Shown here: positions 1 to 6,491 of the stretch, piece by piece | How the letters are laid out: every line of letters begins with the position of its first letter | How positions within the stretch are numbered: the first letter of the stretch is position 1 | From: a virus | Taxonomy: Duplodnaviria; Heunggongvirae; Uroviricota; Caudoviricetes | Length of the DNA: 6,609 nucleotides | Virus record (IMG/VR): IMGVR_UViG_3300018483_000003 | Span: 1 to 6,609 of that record | Direction: 5' to 3' (one strand) | The notes under the pieces: generated by a model | Database searches by the model: none | What the model was told of the DNA's origin: nothing | The model's input: only the letters and a program-made list of their open reading frames with translations | Program-made: the position numbers and the translations under genes

Positions 1-5
1 GTGCC

Positions 6-31
6 AAAAATAAAGGCCGACTATGCGGCCT
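6..31 (-). terminator. Putative intrinsic terminator downstream of the 100-aa membrane-protein gene
   Basis: Plus-strand GGCCG (15-19) and CGGCC (26-30) form a 5-bp GC stem with a 6-nt loop. On the minus-strand transcript the hairpin is followed by TTATTTTT (complement of plus 6-13). It lies about 68 nt past the ORF stop at 99. Confidence 0.4.
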
Positions 32-98
32 GAAATTACTTAACCAATGATGCTGCATATTCGATAAGGTAAAGTTTTGGAGCAAGCCAAATTTTCAG

Positions 99-401
99 TC
101 AGTCGAAATAATTGAAGAAAACAACAATAGAAGTAATCGCTATTCCTGATGTGACAAGTAGTGATAAAAGAACAATATCTTCATCATCTCCTTTATTCAA
201 TGCAAAAATCATCAGATAAACACACGCTATAATCACCAATACACAGATAGCCTGAATTCCAGCTGATGATACGGCGTGCCACATCAAAAGCTGATGGATG
301 ACATCAGGAATCTGTGCCTGGCTAAATGAAACAGCCGCGTCTATTCCATTACTGGCTTTTTGCAGTAGTTCTACGAGAATCTTGTTTGCTTGTTCTTCCA
401 T
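99..401 (-). CDS. Hypothetical small membrane protein (100 aa, two predicted transmembrane helices)
   Basis: ATG at 401-399 is preceded by GAGGTG (complement of 406-411) at 4-nt spacing. The protein has a hydrophilic N-terminal ~40 aa, then hydrophobic segments VSSAGIQAICVLVIIACVYLMIFAL and LLSLLVTSGIAITSIVVFF separated by the acidic loop NKGDDEDIV. AT-rich relative to the rest of the window by eye. No family recognised. Confidence 0.6.
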   Translation of the reverse strand: MEEQANKILVELLQKASNGIDAAVSFSQAQIPDVIHQLLMWHAVSSAGIQAICVLVIIACVYLMIFALNKGDDEDIVLLSLLVTSGIAITSIVVFFNYFD

Positions 402-511
402 ATCTCACCTCAAATAAGTGGTTTGCTGCCTAATTTCATTTTCTGGCGACCAACACAAGTCACACCCATTTCACTGCGTGGCTTGCTGTAATAAATTCGG
501 TTAGTTCAGAC

Positions 512-534
512 AATAAAAAACCCACCGAAGTGGG
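512..534 (-). terminator. Intrinsic terminator immediately after the 112-aa ORF
   Basis: Minus-strand transcript reads CCCAC-UUCG-GUGGG (plus 521-534), a 5-bp GC stem with a UUCG tetraloop, followed directly by UUUUUUAUUG (complement of plus 511-520). The hairpin abuts the TAG stop at 537-535. Confidence 0.6.
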
Positions 535-873
535 CTATGACCATTTTTTATTTGGATTTCGTTGGTGAGCATGATTAACAACTCTGTGCATTACATCCTC
601 ATATTTTTCATCTTCAATTTTTTCGACATCGCGAGGAAATGGTGTTGCTAATGCTTTGTCAACTTTATCCATTGGGTCTTCATTAATCTTATATTCAGGA
701 CCGTCATCTATAGCATTAAATCCAGGTGTTACACCGTTTTTTAATGCATATGCTATCCTCTTTTCCCATCTCGCTATTCTCCTCCTGTCTCGAGATGTAA
801 GACCTCTATCAGATACTTTTCTGTTTTGTCCGCGGTCAGGATTAACATAAATAGTCTTTTTCACCATAAGCAT
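535..873 (-). CDS. Hypothetical highly charged protein (112 aa from ATG 873; 114 aa if the TTG at 879 is used)
   Basis: ORF in the six-frame track. The ATG at 873-871 lies 2 nt after the N stop codon (TGA, 878-876), suggesting translational coupling; no strong SD. Product is rich in R/K/D/E and I recognise no family. AT-rich, and followed directly by a terminator. Confidence 0.55.
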   Translation of the reverse strand: MLMVKKTIYVNPDRGQNRKVSDRGLTSRDRRRIARWEKRIAYALKNGVTPGFNAIDDGPEYKINEDPMDKVDKALATPFPRDVEKIEDEKYEDVMHRVVNHAHQRNPNKKWS

Positions 874-875
874 AC

Positions 876-1181
876 TCAATAAGCACCGTACGGTAGTTTA
901 CTGTACAATTTTATTTTTTGGACTGCATGTATTTTGTTTCCTAATGGGTTTGAATCCTTGTAATAAATACTTCTATTTTTTCGAACGACTTCTTCTTTCT
1001 TCTTGCAGCAAAGGCTTCCTAGTGAAGCTGCTTTGTCTGCTCTGACGCAACCAGAGAGCTTTAGCGCAATTTTTCGCGCTAGTGCTTCATTACTGCGTCG
1101 CTCGGCAATAAGTTCTGCTCTGCGAGCTTTGTAGCGGCTTTTTGCCGTACCTTTGGATTCTTTCCAGACAATGGTTACCAT
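876..1181 (-). CDS. N: N-type transcription antitermination protein (phage-21-like arginine-rich motif)
   Basis: ATG at 1181-1179 with AAGGAG (complement of 1188-1193) 6 nt upstream. The N-terminus MVTIVWKESKGTAKSRYKARRAELIAERR contains the arginine-rich motif I recall for phage 21 N. The gene lies downstream of boxA/boxB elements and a pL-like promoter. The track ORF extends to 1211 but the longer start lacks an RBS. Confidence 0.8.
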   Translation of the reverse strand: MVTIVWKESKGTAKSRYKARRAELIAERRSNEALARKIALKLSGCVRADKAASLGSLCCKKKEEVVRKNRSIYYKDSNPLGNKIHAVQKIKLYSKLPYGAY

Positions 1182-2856: not shown

Positions 2857-3003
2857 ATGACAAAACAACTCAGTCCTTACCAGGACAAAATTCACAAACA
2901 CATACTACGTGATCGCTTCCTGTCCAGCTTCAAGCAGCCTGGTCGATTTCGGGCTGAGTTGGAAAAGGTGAAGCTGATGCAGAAGGAGAAAGGTCATGAG
3001 TAA
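2857..3003 (+). CDS. Possible small basic protein (48 aa) between cII and the O-like gene
   Basis: ATG at 2857 with GGAG (2848-2851) 5 nt upstream. Product [48 protein letters not shown]. Its stop (3001-3003) overlaps the O-like start (2996) as ATGAGTAA. Not in the supplied track because of its length. I recall an orf48 annotated at this position in P22, which if correct supports it. Confidence 0.4.
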
Positions 3004-3895
3004 CATATCTAATCTAGCCGAAGCCAGAGAGGCCAGAAGGCTACAACAACCGCATCAAAGCAGCGGTAAGGGGTATGCCTTGCTGCACCGTAAAATTATG
3101 GATGTGCCGTTTTACAAGGACGCAGAAGCAGCGCATCTGTGGGTTCACTTAATCCTCAAAGCAAAGCATACGCCTGAGTATGTAATGACTGACGCAGGAG
3201 AAATTCTGGTAGGCAGAGGGAAGCTACTTGGCGGTAGAAACTCTCTGGCGTTTGAAACAGGACTCAAACCAGATCGCGTTCAGTACCTGCTTAGAAAGTT
3301 CAAAAAACTCGGCATGATTGACTGGGTTTCACACGGTAAATTCTCAGTTTTCTCGGTAGAGAAATATGACGATTATCAGTCAAATTTTGTACCAGCAGAT
3401 TACCAGCAAATTACCACCTCAAAGCCAGCAATACCAATGCCTGCAAGCAATACTGTACCAGCAGATTACCAGCAAATTACCACAGATAAAGAATATAATA
3501 ATATTATCTCTAATACTGACGTATTAGAGAGTGCCACAGCAGACAAAAAGTCTGACAAGAAAAAACCTTCCGTTAGCTGTCAGGATGTTGTCGATGCTTA
3601 CCACGAAATCCTTCCTGAAGCGCCAAGAATCCGCGCACTGAATGACAAGCGTAAAAACCAGATCCGAACGTTCTGGCGCAAAGCCGGAGTGATAACCCGC
3701 CAGCTTGACGGGCATGGGTTCACGATGCAGGACTGGAGAAATTATTTGAGCTACGTAGGCGAAAATTGCCGATGGATGTTCGAAGAGCGCCCAAACCATC
3801 AACGCGGAACCGTCTGGCACAAAAAGGGATTTGATTTCCTGCTTAACGACAATACCTACCTGAAAGTTCGTGAGGGTGAACACGATGACCGATAA
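2996..3895 (+). CDS. Replication initiation protein (lambda O / P22 gp18 analogue) with DnaT-like C-terminal domain
   Basis: 299-aa ORF with AAGGAG (2983-2988) 7 nt upstream. It occupies the O position directly upstream of a DnaB-family helicase and contains internal iterons plus an AT-rich tract. The C-terminal region ([17 protein letters not shown]...WRKAGV) resembles DnaT/primosomal-type loader domains as far as I can recall. Confidence 0.8.
3389..3530. repeat. Iteron-like direct repeats plus AT-rich tract inside the O-like gene (putative ori)
   Basis: An identical 29-bp sequence GTACCAGCAGATTACCAGCAAATTACCAC occurs at 3389-3417 and 3455-3483. Each copy holds three TACCA(G/C) motifs at 11-bp phasing (3390, 3401, 3412 and 3456, 3467, 3478). 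An AT-rich tract follows at 3484-3530 (GATAAAGAATATAATAATATTATCTCTAATACTGACGTATTAGAG). Confidence 0.6.
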
Positions 3896-5321
3896 TTTTT
3901 ATGCGCCGCCCCATAGCATCGAGGCAGAGCAGGCGGTGATTGGTGGATTGCTTCTGGATGATGACAGCAGTGAGCGCGTCCAGAAAGTTCTGGCGATGCT
4001 GAAGCCTGATTCATTTTACGGCCGACCACACAAAATCCTTTTCGAAGAAATAACCAGAATGCACCGGGAGCAAAAGCCAGTAGATGGCCTGACGCTTTTC
4101 GATGAACTGGAGCGTAAATCGTTAACGGCGTCTGTTGGCGGTTTTGCTTATATCGCTGAGATCGCAAAAAACACGCCAAGCGCAGCAAACATCGTTGCCT
4201 ATGCAATGCAGGTTCGTGAAACCGCAATGGAACGCTACGCCATAAACCGCATGACTGAAGCGACGGAATTGCTCTATTCCCGCAACGGAATGACTGCAAC
4301 GCAGAAGTACGAAGCTATTCAGGCGATTTTCACGCAACTGACAGACCATGCAAAAACCGGATCGCGTCGCGGCCTTCGCTCATTTGGTGAGGTCATGGAA
4401 GACTGGGTTAGCGACCTTGAGAAGCGATTTGACCCGTCAGGCGAACAACGAGGAATGAGCACGGGGATCCCATCGCTGGACAGGATGCTGTCACCGAAAG
4501 GTCTGGTGAAAGGCTCTCTGTTTGTCATTGGCGCTCGCCCTAAGATGGGGAAAACGACGCTATACAGCCAGATGGCAATCAACTGTGCAGTGCATGAGAA
4601 AAAGCCTGCTCTGATGTTCAGCCTTGAAATGCCAGGTGACCAGATACTGGAAAAACTGGTAGGGCAGAAGTCAGGTGTTAACCCGAATATTTTTTACCTT
4701 CCGGCGACAAATGACGCTGATGACGGCTATCAGGGTGATTACGATGGTGACTTCAACAGGGCGATCGAAACAGCCAATCGCTTGAGTGAAATCGACATGC
4801 TTTACATCGACGACACGCCGGGATTATCTCTGGCTCAAATCGTCAGCGAAAGCCGTCGAATCAAGCGAGAAAAAGGATGTGTTGGCATGATTCTGGTCGA
4901 TTACCTGACACTAATGACCGCTGAAAAGGCCGATCGCAACGACCTTGCTTACGGCATGATCACCAAAGGACTGAAGAACCTTGCCAAAGAGCTTGATTGC
5001 GTTGTTGTGCTTCTGACGCAGCTTAACCGCGCATTGGAAAGCCGAACCAATAAACGCCCATTACCAAGTGACTCGCGAGATACAGGGCAGATTGAACAGG
5101 ATTGCGATTATTGGGTTGGGATCCATCGGGAAGGTGCTTTTGATGACAGCGTTCCTCCTGGTGAAACCGAACTAATCCTTCGCCTCAATCGTCATGGCAA
5201 TACCGGCACGGTGTATTGCATACAGGCAAATGGCGCTATTTATGACACAGACCAACAGTCTGCTGAAATGCGCCGCCGTGAACGCGAGGAACCGCAGTCC
5301 AAGAAGAAAGGAGGATTCTGA
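3885..5321 (+). CDS. DnaB-family replicative DNA helicase (478 aa)
   Basis: ATG at 3885 with GAGGGTG (3872-3878) upstream, overlapping the O-like stop by 11 nt. N-terminal DnaB signature PHSIEAEQAVIGGLLLD, Walker A GARPKMGKTT and Walker B-like MILVDYLTLM. GTG codons at 3870 and 3876 are possible alternative starts. Confidence 0.9.
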   Translation: MTDNFYAPPHSIEAEQAVIGGLLLDDDSSERVQKVLAMLKPDSFYGRPHKILFEEITRMHREQKPVDGLTLFDELERKSLTASVGGFAYIAEIAKNTPSAANIVAYAMQVRETAMERYAINRMTEATELLYSRNGMTATQKYEAIQAIFTQLTDHAKTGSRRGLRSFGEVMEDWVSDLEKRFDPSGEQRGMSTGIPSLDRMLSPKGLVKGSLFVIGARPKMGKTTLYSQMAINCAVHEKKPALMFSLEMPGDQILEKLVGQKSGVNPNIFYLPATNDADDGYQGDYDGDFNRAIETANRLSEIDMLYIDDTPGLSLAQIVSESRRIKREKGCVGMILVDYLTLMTAEKADRNDLAYGMITKGLKNLAKELDCVVVLLTQLNRALESRTNKRPLPSDSRDTGQIEQDCDYWVGIHREGAFDDSVPPGETELILRLNRHGNTGTVYCIQANGAIYDTDQQSAEMRRREREEPQSKKKGGF

Positions 5322-5349
5322 TGACCATCTACATCAGTGAGCTTGTAAC

Positions 5350-5381
5350 AGGCCTGCTGGTAATCGCAGGCCTTTTTATTT
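5350..5381 (+). terminator. Strong intrinsic terminator after the helicase gene (tR2-like position)
   Basis: Perfect 8-bp stem AGGCCTGC (5350-5357) pairing with GCAGGCCT (5366-5373), an 8-nt loop, then TTTTATTT (5374-5381). It sits between the helicase stop (5321) and the next ORF (5398). Confidence 0.7.
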
Positions 5382-5397
5382 GGGGGAGAGGGAAGTC

Positions 5398-5580
5398 ATG
5401 AATCTTGACGAGCAAGATGCACAAACTATTAGCTCATACATAAGGGCATCAAGACCAGATTACAAAGGTCCGGTATTCGTAGATTTATCTCGCCTTGAGG
5501 AGATTTACATGTGGGAAGCAAAGCTACGTACGCATCTTTTTATTCGTAAGATGACTAGCAACATTACAAAACCAATGTAA
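5398..5580 (+). CDS. Hypothetical protein (60 aa)
   Basis: ATG at 5398 preceded by purine-rich GGGAGAGGGAAG (5383-5394). The track ORF starts at an upstream TTG (5380). Product MNLDEQDAQTISSYIRASRPDYKGPVF...; no family recognised. Confidence 0.5.
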   Translation: MNLDEQDAQTISSYIRASRPDYKGPVFVDLSRLEEIYMWEAKLRTHLFIRKMTSNITKPM

Positions 5581-5811: not shown

Positions 5812-6078
5812 ATGGACGAATCAAGAAAGCAGTTTGAAGAATGGTTTGAAAATTACACCGGATGTGATCCTAAAAATAAAATATACGCCAATATGGTTGA
5901 GATGTATTGGCAAGCGTGGCAGGCATCGCGAGCAGCTATCGAGATTGAGTGTCCTGGAAAAAGAGAGCGTGAGGCATTTTCTACCGATTTCGAGGATGGG
6001 GTCACATTTGGTTATAACGACGCAATTAGTGAATGCGAAGGACGGATTCGCGCTGCTGGAGTCAAAGTGAAGGAGTGA
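5812..6078 (+). CDS. Hypothetical acidic protein (88 aa)
   Basis: ATG at 5812 directly after the previous stop; the track uses GTG at 5788. Product MDESRKQFEEWFENYTGCDPKNKIYANMVEMYWQAWQ...; Trp- and acid-rich. The stop is followed by the ninB RBS. Confidence 0.55.
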   Translation: MDESRKQFEEWFENYTGCDPKNKIYANMVEMYWQAWQASRAAIEIECPGKREREAFSTDFEDGVTFGYNDAISECEGRIRAAGVKVKE

Positions 6079-6080
6079 CG

Positions 6081-6491
6081 ATGAAGCAAACAATCTTCCT
6101 CCGAACTAAGCAACAACAGCAAGCCGCAATCAACGCCATCCTCGCAACACCACTCGATAAAGACAAGCCAGTCACCATCCGCATTACTGACTACAAGCGC
6201 AACCTTGACCAGAACGCAAAATTTCACGCGATGCTGGCGGATATCGCTCGTCAGGTTCAATGGTGCGATAAATGGCTAAAACCAGAACAATGGAAGGTTT
6301 TGTTGATCAGCGGTCATGCAGTGGCAACAAAACAGGAAGCTGATGTTTTGCCCGGCCTTGAAGGCGAATACGTCAACATTCGCGAAAGCAGCGCGCAGAT
6401 GAGTGTGAAGCGTATGGCAAGTCTAATTGAGTACACGACAGCATGGGCTATTGGTCAGGGTGTCAGATTTACCGACAGGAGGTACGAATGA
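6081..6491 (+). CDS. ninB: NinB (Orf-family recombination mediator, 136 aa)
   Basis: ATG at 6081 with AAGGAG (6070-6075) 5 nt upstream. Motifs [33 protein letters not shown] resemble lambda NinB/Orf as I recall it. The track's upstream extension (6033) overlaps the preceding gene and lacks an RBS. Confidence 0.85.

Follow-up and report, generated by a model that had tools for sequence, protein, structure and literature searches.

The pL arm and the gene at 99-401

The window, by which we mean the whole stretch of 6,609 nucleotides analysed here, covers the immunity and early region of a lambdoid prophage in which several genes are P22-like. Its + strand carries cro, cII, O, a DnaB-type helicase gene and ninB, and an Rfam scan of the window returned no match. 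The features that the analysis draws on are as follows.

1496-2146, - strand: cI/C2-type repressor
2420-2429, + strand: nutR boxA, found by pattern search
1322-1331, - strand: nutL boxA, GCTCTTTAAC, found by pattern search
876-1211, - strand: N-like antiterminator, first gene of the pL operon (phrog_271, E 1e-31; weak Pfam N_peptide match)
535-879, - strand: ortholog of HK022 Nun (phrog_5632); maximal ORF, 110-112 aa by gene caller
511-536, - strand: intrinsic-terminator-like hairpin (536->519) with T-run, at the nun end and 5' of the 99-401 gene in the pL transcript (terminator scan)
398-430, no strand assigned: mosaic junction at the ribosome-binding site and start codon, in sequence common to phages with different genes in the slot
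405-411, - strand: Shine-Dalgarno sequence GAGGTGA, read from the sequence upstream of the ATG at 399-401
99-401, - strand: ORF of 100 aa with an ATG start (ORF list, hydropathy and phrog_3054 match)
Residues 1 to about 45 of the 100-aa product: conserved N-terminal helix
Residues about 44-67 of the product: first transmembrane helix (TM1)
Between TM1 and TM2 of the product: short acidic loop, NKGDDED
Residues about 76-99 of the product: second transmembrane helix (TM2)
99-101, - strand: premature stop TGA, which is TGG (Trp101) in intact alleles; the next base is C, giving UGA-C (alignment and allele table)
36-98, - strand: orphaned ancestral 3' end, codons 102-121 (LKIWLAPKLYLIEYAASLVK) with TAA at 36-38, in frame and unchanged
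6-31, - strand: intrinsic-terminator-like hairpin (31->14) with T-run, 4 nt past the ancestral TAA (terminator scan)

The original prediction, made from the letters of this DNA, described 99-401 as the gene for a small membrane protein with a hydrophilic N-terminal region, two strongly hydrophobic helices, a good ribosome-binding site and terminators on both sides, and this description was borne out. The 100-aa ORF and its ATG are present in the ORF list on the - strand, and the GAGG core of the Shine-Dalgarno sequence lies 6 nt from that ATG. In 19-residue Kyte-Doolittle windows the hydrophilic N-terminal region is followed by two peaks, of 2.79 (residues 49-67) and 2.51 (residues 76-94), both above the usual threshold of 1.6. 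Hairpins on the - strand flank the gene at 536->519 and 31->14, from a scan of 2.3 kb that returned 9 such sites where shuffled sequence would give 1.9. The first belongs to a nun segment shared with HK022 (window 518-993), and the second, with its T-run, is near-identical in SPN9CC and HK633, where one stem base differs. The reading frame is not a chance ORF, since its 100-aa product matches phrog_3054 at E 1e-30 (profile positions 1-72 only) and gene calls on 8 public contigs give exactly this protein.

The placement of this gene at the distal end of the pL arm did not hold. On contig L003 the operon continues past 99-401 through a cIII-like 56-aa gene, a 52-aa gene, Rad52-like, SSB and abc2 genes, xis and int, so that the leftward extension proposed with the prediction did uncover further pL genes. 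The longest contig with the exact 100-aa protein is UCXM01000004.1 (assembly GCA_900479515.1). At its prophage end, xis and int adjoin a pectinesterase gene and an aconitase-family gene, a pair which we take to be ybhC and ybhJ, beside the lambda attachment site on the E. coli map.

On the pL strand, nutL, N, nun and the nun terminator all precede the 99-401 gene. A crude scan for a consensus sigma-70 promoter in 402-534 (the 117-nt spacer) found none; a weak or non-sigma-70 promoter within 402-534 is possible. The gene lies within the repressed, N-dependent pL operon, past a terminator, and lacks a consensus sigma-70 promoter; expression in the prophage is therefore not indicated, which weakens the case for protection of the lysogen. 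In the mechanism that we propose, the gene would be transcribed from pL only upon induction or infection, as a delayed-early gene reached by N-antiterminated read-through, and would be silent in the repressed prophage.

Elsewhere in the window, the O-like replication protein (2996-3895) contains, around 3366-3530, a directly repeated peptide ending in (S/D)K that is repeated at the DNA level as well. The HK022 O gene gives a separate 30-nt blastn match at this repeat region. These repeats are probably origin iterons inside the O gene.

The PHROG 3054 family and the truncated window allele

When window positions 1-440 were aligned with Salmonella phage SPN9CC and coliphage HK633 (98% identical), the TGA at 99-101 was found to be TGG in both phages, in which the ORF runs for 20 further codons to a TAA matching window 36-38. 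Intact relatives encode 121 aa; HK633 and SPN9CC have an identical 121-aa allele, and E. coli UID2309220041 has a 121-aa ORF annotated as WP_010835874.1. Their TAA, at the position of window 36-38, lies 4 nt before the downstream hairpin, which accounts for that hairpin seeming 64 nt too distant from the stop in the window. Read through its stop, the window encodes ...FNYFD*LKIWLAPKLYLIEYAASLVK*, so the last residue of the 100-aa product is D100, directly before the C-terminal motif of the family. As every close relative has TGG at 99-101, the window copy is, judged by these alignments, a W101-to-TGA truncation of a 121-aa phage membrane protein. The original prediction was thus right that a gene is present at 99-401, and wrong to take 99-401 as the natural gene unit.

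The allele survey points the same way. The 121-aa type is represented by 27 copies in 17 nucleotide alleles; TGA is confined to the window lineage and TGG is found in the 16 others. The window lineage comprises seven contigs, all identical, from several samples, and because the same mutation recurs in independent assemblies, the truncation is a real allele and not a sequencing error. TGA was found in 1 of 14 IMG/VR contigs with the 30-mer around the stop site, and 79 of 80 IMG/VR loci encoding relatives are intact, the sole exception being the window's own allele. Exact-pattern scans for the TGA/TGG site matched no GTDB representative genome and one metagenome contig (TGG), too few for an allele frequency.

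With translation continued past the TGA, the window sequence has 97-99% identity to the 121-aa type and aligns end to end with phrog_3054 (1-121 against 1-137, E 9e-47). Over the 366 nt compared with the commonest intact allele, differences occur solely at codons 17, 68, 74 and 101, and codons 102-121 are identical. Three changes, W68L, A74E and W101*, are private to the window lineage, in which the allele table records no private synonymous change. This pattern of three private non-synonymous or nonsense changes and zero private synonymous ones would fit relaxed constraint in the window lineage. Among intact close alleles, codons 100-121 have accumulated about 14 synonymous changes against 1 non-synonymous change, which indicates that the tail is translated and under purifying selection.

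The family to which the gene belongs is PHROG 3054, Sf6 gp34-like. A word-indexed search returned 574 relatives of 119-150 aa, every one of them named 'hypothetical', 'phage transmembrane protein' or 'Gene 34 protein', and an exhaustive profile search placed 4,458 clusters at 50% identity in the family at E <= 1e-3, and 1,867 at E <= 1e-10. Nearly all of the 150 matches listed in the PHROG 3054 profile search cover the whole profile. By tblastn the family occurs in 181 phage records, among them many of Vibrio phages and others of P22-like, lambdoid and Pseudomonas phages, of phi92-like myoviruses and of N4-like phages of Salmonella and Klebsiella. Both temperate and virulent phages carry it, the phi92-like and N4-like ones being among the virulent.

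Alignments of 34 and 148 members showed two near-invariant segments, the first ~47 residues and the last 21, with TM1, TM2 and the connecting loop barely conserved. In the larger alignment W101, I104, A107, P108, K109, L112, E114, Y115, A117 and L119 either never vary or are conserved to at least 90%. They fall in the near-invariant C-terminal helix, WLKIWLAPKLYLIEYAASLVK, which is missing from the window product. We compared the window with each of these family traits. In its N-terminal ~47 residues (…GIDAAVSFSQAQIPDV..QLL.W…) all invariant columns are present, and its two transmembrane segments agree with the exactly two hydropathy peaks of 243 of 266 family members. The C-terminal helix, (F)DWLKIWLAPKLYLIEYAASLVK, is in frame past the TGA and untranslated, and for this reason the window gene is a member of PHROG 3054 by descent, in truncated form, and not by full structure. 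Gene 34 of Shigella phage Sf6, HK633 'gp42' and SPN9CC_0015 are likewise homologous to it, with a nearly identical N-terminal 47 aa, the same two-TM hairpin and the same position in the N-to-cIII slot. The window allele differs from these relatives in stopping at codon 101, with loss of the C-terminal helix, and in carrying W68L and A74E.

Whether such an allele still works was considered from both sides. Identity across seven contigs and several samples indicates stable maintenance in one lineage, and the allele could have retained or altered activity. The 100-aa product might be partly active, modified in function or dominant-negative, or read-through of the UGA might supply enough full-length protein. 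In keeping with this, the frame past the stop is intact, with every base unchanged down to the original TAA, and the allele is unchanged in at least seven contigs; such an intact downstream frame makes a small full-length fraction conceivable. Of the termination contexts reported for E. coli, Poole, Brown and Tate are said to have found in 1995 that UGA with a C after it is the weakest. When UGA is read through by a near-cognate tRNA, Trp is inserted, which here is the ancestral residue. A recent mutation would also leave the downstream frame unchanged, however, read-through normally yields a few per cent at most, and the lineage has two more private non-conservative substitutions with zero private synonymous ones. 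On balance we regard a living allele as unlikely. In our proposal the 100-aa product would be inactive or strongly impaired, and tRNA-Trp read-through of the weak UGA-C, which would restore the original Trp, could give full-length protein to the extent of a few per cent at most.

The window copy is most likely a decaying or attenuated accessory gene. Taken jointly, we consider it probable that the window carries a nonsense-truncated PHROG 3054 allele, encoding a disabled or hypomorphic form of a stand-alone early accessory membrane protein. The copy itself is then of little weight, as an ordinary gene of its kind in decay or attenuation.

Other shortened copies, which retain the N-terminal part over 46-112 aa, were seen in E. 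coli, E. albertii and Raoultella on large contigs of the chromosome. Independent shortened copies of this kind show that truncation recurs in resident prophages. Family fragments of 46-81 aa in bacterial chromosomes suggest that the gene is often dispensable there, and are consistent with prophage decay.

A variable slot between N/nun and cIII

The gene immediately 5' of the membrane-protein gene is readily identified. The 535-879 ORF matches phrog_5632 (Nun-like) at E 4.8e-71 and shares 98.2% identity over 114 aa with the nun region of HK022. The soluble Nun protein excludes lambda by arresting RNA polymerase on lambda nut transcripts together with host Nus factors (PMC5386594, PMC4124055). 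The ortholog of a genuine prophage exclusion factor is therefore the neighbour of 99-401; this factor is a soluble arginine-rich-motif protein, with RNA polymerase as its target and without a known membrane partner (PMC5386594).

It had been proposed that the membrane protein may work with the adjacent 112-aa protein as a two-component module. The two genes are adjacent on the same strand in the window, and a Nun ortholog adjoins a family gene in 2 of 80 loci (L075 and L083), with a distant Nun-like ORF in 4 more. Against this, the neighbour is a 98%-identical Nun, a soluble polymerase-arresting protein, and a terminator and a mosaic junction lie between the two genes. Further, HK022 and mEp235 have nun without the membrane-protein gene, HK022 carrying IS903 just 3' of nun and mEp235 an unrelated 207-aa gene that starts at the same junction, and HK633, SPN9CC and most other loci have the membrane-protein gene without nun. 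Because neighbours vary across the 80 loci, these are independently exchanged genes and not a two-gene module, and we think a functional pairing of the two most improbable.

The prophage of the window has both an N-like antiterminator and the 98%-identical HK022 Nun (535-1211). HK022 DNA 5' of nun gives a tblastn match, with 57% identity, to residues 32-111 of the window N-like protein (L093, 3729-4276), which points to a remnant or relative of N next to nun in that phage.

The point of exchange can be placed at the ribosome-binding site and start codon of the membrane-protein gene. SPN9CC matches window positions 1-426, mEp235 matches 409-900 and many phages match 390-430 only; as the same ribosome-binding site and start sequence is common to phages with different cargo, we read it as a mosaic junction. 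The junction, ~40 bp at 398-430, is 95-98% identical in many phages that have no other match in 1-430, Sf101, ECP1, 2B8 and BTP1 being examples. From these alignments, the junction sequence appears to behave as a recombination linker for a cargo slot after N/nun.

What flanks the family gene differs from locus to locus. Among the 80 loci its 5' neighbour may be N, ral, an opposite-strand sieB, nun or a distant Nun-like ORF, or HK633 gp43, and its 3' neighbour a P22 gene-17 homolog, a Sf6 gene-33 homolog, cIII or kil. The gene is thereby shown to be a self-contained cassette, which occupies a variable slot bounded by N/nun and cIII in the lambdoid pL operon. P22 gene 17 was considered as an ortholog by position and rejected, as the two proteins are unrelated and gave no BLASTP alignment. 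It is a positional analogue, the last gene before the terminator and upstream of c3; its product is soluble and acidic, and its homologs often adjoin the family gene.

Contexts outside the pL operon are equally varied. In some podovirus-like prophages the family gene lies between the terminase and portal genes and is encoded on the other strand; elsewhere it follows a DNA methylase. In phi92 its neighbours are an AAA ATPase and a CapR-domain protein; a Vibrio phage has a DUF2800 nuclease next to it, and an N4-like phage a YadA-like adhesin. A conserved partner was sought among the neighbours in phi92, Vibrio and N4-like phages and the other prophages; these neighbours were heterogeneous, and a beta-clamp-like gene was also seen.

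Two of these contexts have details of their own. In L034 (~5965-6405), L040 (~3439-4060), L038 and L042 the family gene stands alone on the opposite strand in the gap between the large terminase and portal genes; a terminator-like hairpin flanks it on each side, and the stretch from the upstream hairpin to the gene contains no consensus promoter. In FSL SP-058, an N4-like virulent Salmonella phage, the neighbour (L012, 4427-5416) has collagen triple-helix repeats and a YadA-like outer-membrane anchor, an unusual cargo for a phage.

Conserved ends, a divergent centre and possible roles

An AF2 model built on the 148-sequence alignment (pLDDT 88, pTM 0.62) has helices at residues 2-70, 74-97, 100-106 and 108-120. 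The N-terminal tail and TM1 form one continuous helix over residues 2-70, the C-terminal helix is broken at P108, and the TM hairpin has a pLDDT of 84-94. In the 243 two-TM members, the Lys and Arg residues that flank the membrane average 2.8 in the loop against 1.3 in the tails, and the N-terminal tail is net acidic. Over these members the positive-inside rule favours an N-out/C-out topology with the conserved helices in the periplasm; the short-acidic-loop subtype of the window is ambiguous. Whichever topology applies, both conserved ends are on one side of the membrane.

The centre of the gene was compared between types of 121, 128, 140, 141 and 149 aa from E. coli-type prophages (e.g. L015, L048, L058, L039, L041). 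The N- and C-terminal coding parts are 60-87% identical even at third codon positions, whereas the central TM1-loop-TM2 region has 44-52% nucleotide identity between types, which is close to random. The family gene is thus, at the level of these comparisons, an intragenic mosaic of discrete length types with an essentially unalignable centre. With flanks so similar at third positions and a centre so near to random, neutral drift of a mere anchor is insufficient, and the centre must owe its divergence either to recombinational swapping or to selection. Conserved ends around a swapped centre are a specificity-module pattern typical of conflict genes, and the swapped centre is the best indirect argument that intact members act in phage or host-defence conflict.

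Searches for relatives outside the family gave little. A Pfam scan of 148 diverse members matched no family in more than one of them, and Pfam, NCBIfam and PADLOC searches with the truncated and full-length protein returned insignificant matches only, driven by transmembrane composition. The PDB contained no sequence match to the family profile and, when the models were compared by Foldseek, no hit below E 1; Foldseek against BFVD gave as its sole match an uncharacterised homolog from Pseudomonas phage Bjorn. A search for domain fusions with just the first 46 residues recovered nothing beyond short family fragments. A literature search, by PHROG number and for small membrane proteins of the early left operon, found no paper on PHROG 3054, and most early-left genes are without known function in reviews of P22-like genomes (PMC8022706). 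The original prediction was to fall if membrane helices were missing or if the protein had clear homology to a characterised non-defence protein. The helices are present and the remote-homology searches returned no such homolog, so on neither count is it refuted. The proposed function in exclusion or abortive infection gains no support from these results either.

Its suggestion that the protein acts in superinfection exclusion or abortive infection, with RexB and SieB as examples, was compared with the known systems. In PADLOC-DB 2.0 no match was significant, the best being generic '2TM effector' models at E 0.06-0.09. Alignment of the family profile by hhalign gave probabilities of 0.07% with lambda RexB, 0.15% with lambda SieB, 0.4% with P22 SieA and 0.3% with T4 Imm, and no relation to lambda Ea10. 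RexB is, like the window protein, a small phage membrane protein of the immunity region, but it is encoded beside cI with its partner RexA, whereas the window gene is in the pL operon; a search for a RexA-like ORF between cI and pL, or elsewhere in the window, found none. RexB is expressed in the lysogen. SieB of lambda and P22 is membrane-associated and encoded in the N-to-cIII region, as is the window protein. It is larger, at ~185-192 aa, and has a promoter of its own that directs transcription against the pL direction; the P22 annotation also gives it an internal Esc start. The window gene is instead on the pL strand without a consensus promoter. The presence of sieB and the family gene together in 6 of 80 loci indicates that the two are not alternatives.

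These comparisons bear on the reading in which the 100-aa protein is a working, prophage-expressed exclusion or abortive-infection protein that shields the lysogen. A two-TM protein in the region where lambda and P22 carry sieB and ral would suit that role, as would the moron-like setting of the family gene in some podovirus-like prophages, where it stands by itself between terminase and portal genes and is read from the other strand, and discrete, highly diverged centre types between conserved ends are what a conflict gene would show. The window copy lacks the invariant C-terminal helix, however, and the interval from the nun terminator to the gene has no consensus promoter. In 10 of the 80 loci N is directly 5' with a stop-to-start gap of at most 10 nt, which places the gene in the repressed pL operon. 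Moreover, the proteins of known systems (RexB, SieB, SieA and Imm) are unrelated to it, the family is common in virulent phages, and chromosomes repeatedly hold truncated copies. We therefore judge protection of the lysogen by this protein to be quite unlikely.

A role outside conflict was also weighed, in which the family would serve lysis timing, as a holin- or antiholin-like protein, or anchor replication or recombination proteins to the membrane. The small two-TM architecture resembles that of class II holins, and in L046 the gene follows lysis-like genes (read from translations only). Neighbours in several phages belong to DNA metabolism (the DUF2800 nuclease, the AAA ATPase, a beta-clamp-like gene and Erf/Rad52), but they differ from phage to phage and include no conserved partner. 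No Pfam holin model matches any of the 148 members, and the prophage has its own holin (PF16080) and lysozyme ~10 kb from the family gene on L003. Such a role in place of one in conflict appears very unlikely. More broadly, host takeover, lysis timing and anchoring of a DNA-metabolism complex are possible family roles.

The absence of a fixed partner, the range across virulent and temperate phages, the placement among early genes, the conservation of the helices across genera and the swapped centre together point to a stand-alone early role. T4 Imm, an early-expressed inner-membrane superinfection immunity protein, offers a functional analogy only. Like PHROG 3054 it is a small, stand-alone, two-TM protein encoded among early genes, and PHROG 3054 also occurs in virulent phages; unlike PHROG 3054, it has neither the long conserved N-terminal helix nor the C-terminal motif. 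In the mechanism that we propose, intact members would act alone through their two conserved extramembrane helices, with the hairpin as anchor. Their target would probably be a conserved envelope component or an incoming competitor phage, and this is the least certain step. We suggest tentatively, by analogy, that intact members may be stand-alone early membrane proteins acting through the conserved helices on an envelope component or an incoming phage, with a logic like that of T4 Imm. By the same analogy, and with least certainty, that logic would be nearer to early-expressed exclusion than to the prophage-expressed Rex and SieB systems.

A more specific reading takes the swapped centre into account. 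It is conceivable, if doubtful, that intact members form a stand-alone, polymorphic determinant in conflicts between phages or between phage and host. Temperate and virulent phages of Gammaproteobacteria alike would use it at the inner membrane, perhaps for early superinfection exclusion or for counter-defence, with the ends providing a shared mechanism and the swapped centre specificity. If this is true, the window allele would be a natural knock-out or a read-through hypomorph. The family is of more interest than the window copy, with its thousands of clusters in temperate and virulent phages, no Pfam model or solved structure, and an unusual architecture of two near-invariant same-side helices joined by a hairpin of discrete, unrelated types. 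Within it, the natural truncation is a ready-made comparison allele.

The annotation of HK633 obscures its intact copy. The 121-aa ORF at 5036-5401 is absent from the annotation of the record, in which 'gp42' corresponds to the last 58 codons of the family gene only (L001, 5036-5768) and 'gp43' (129 aa) is annotated in another frame over the first ~80 nt of the family gene.
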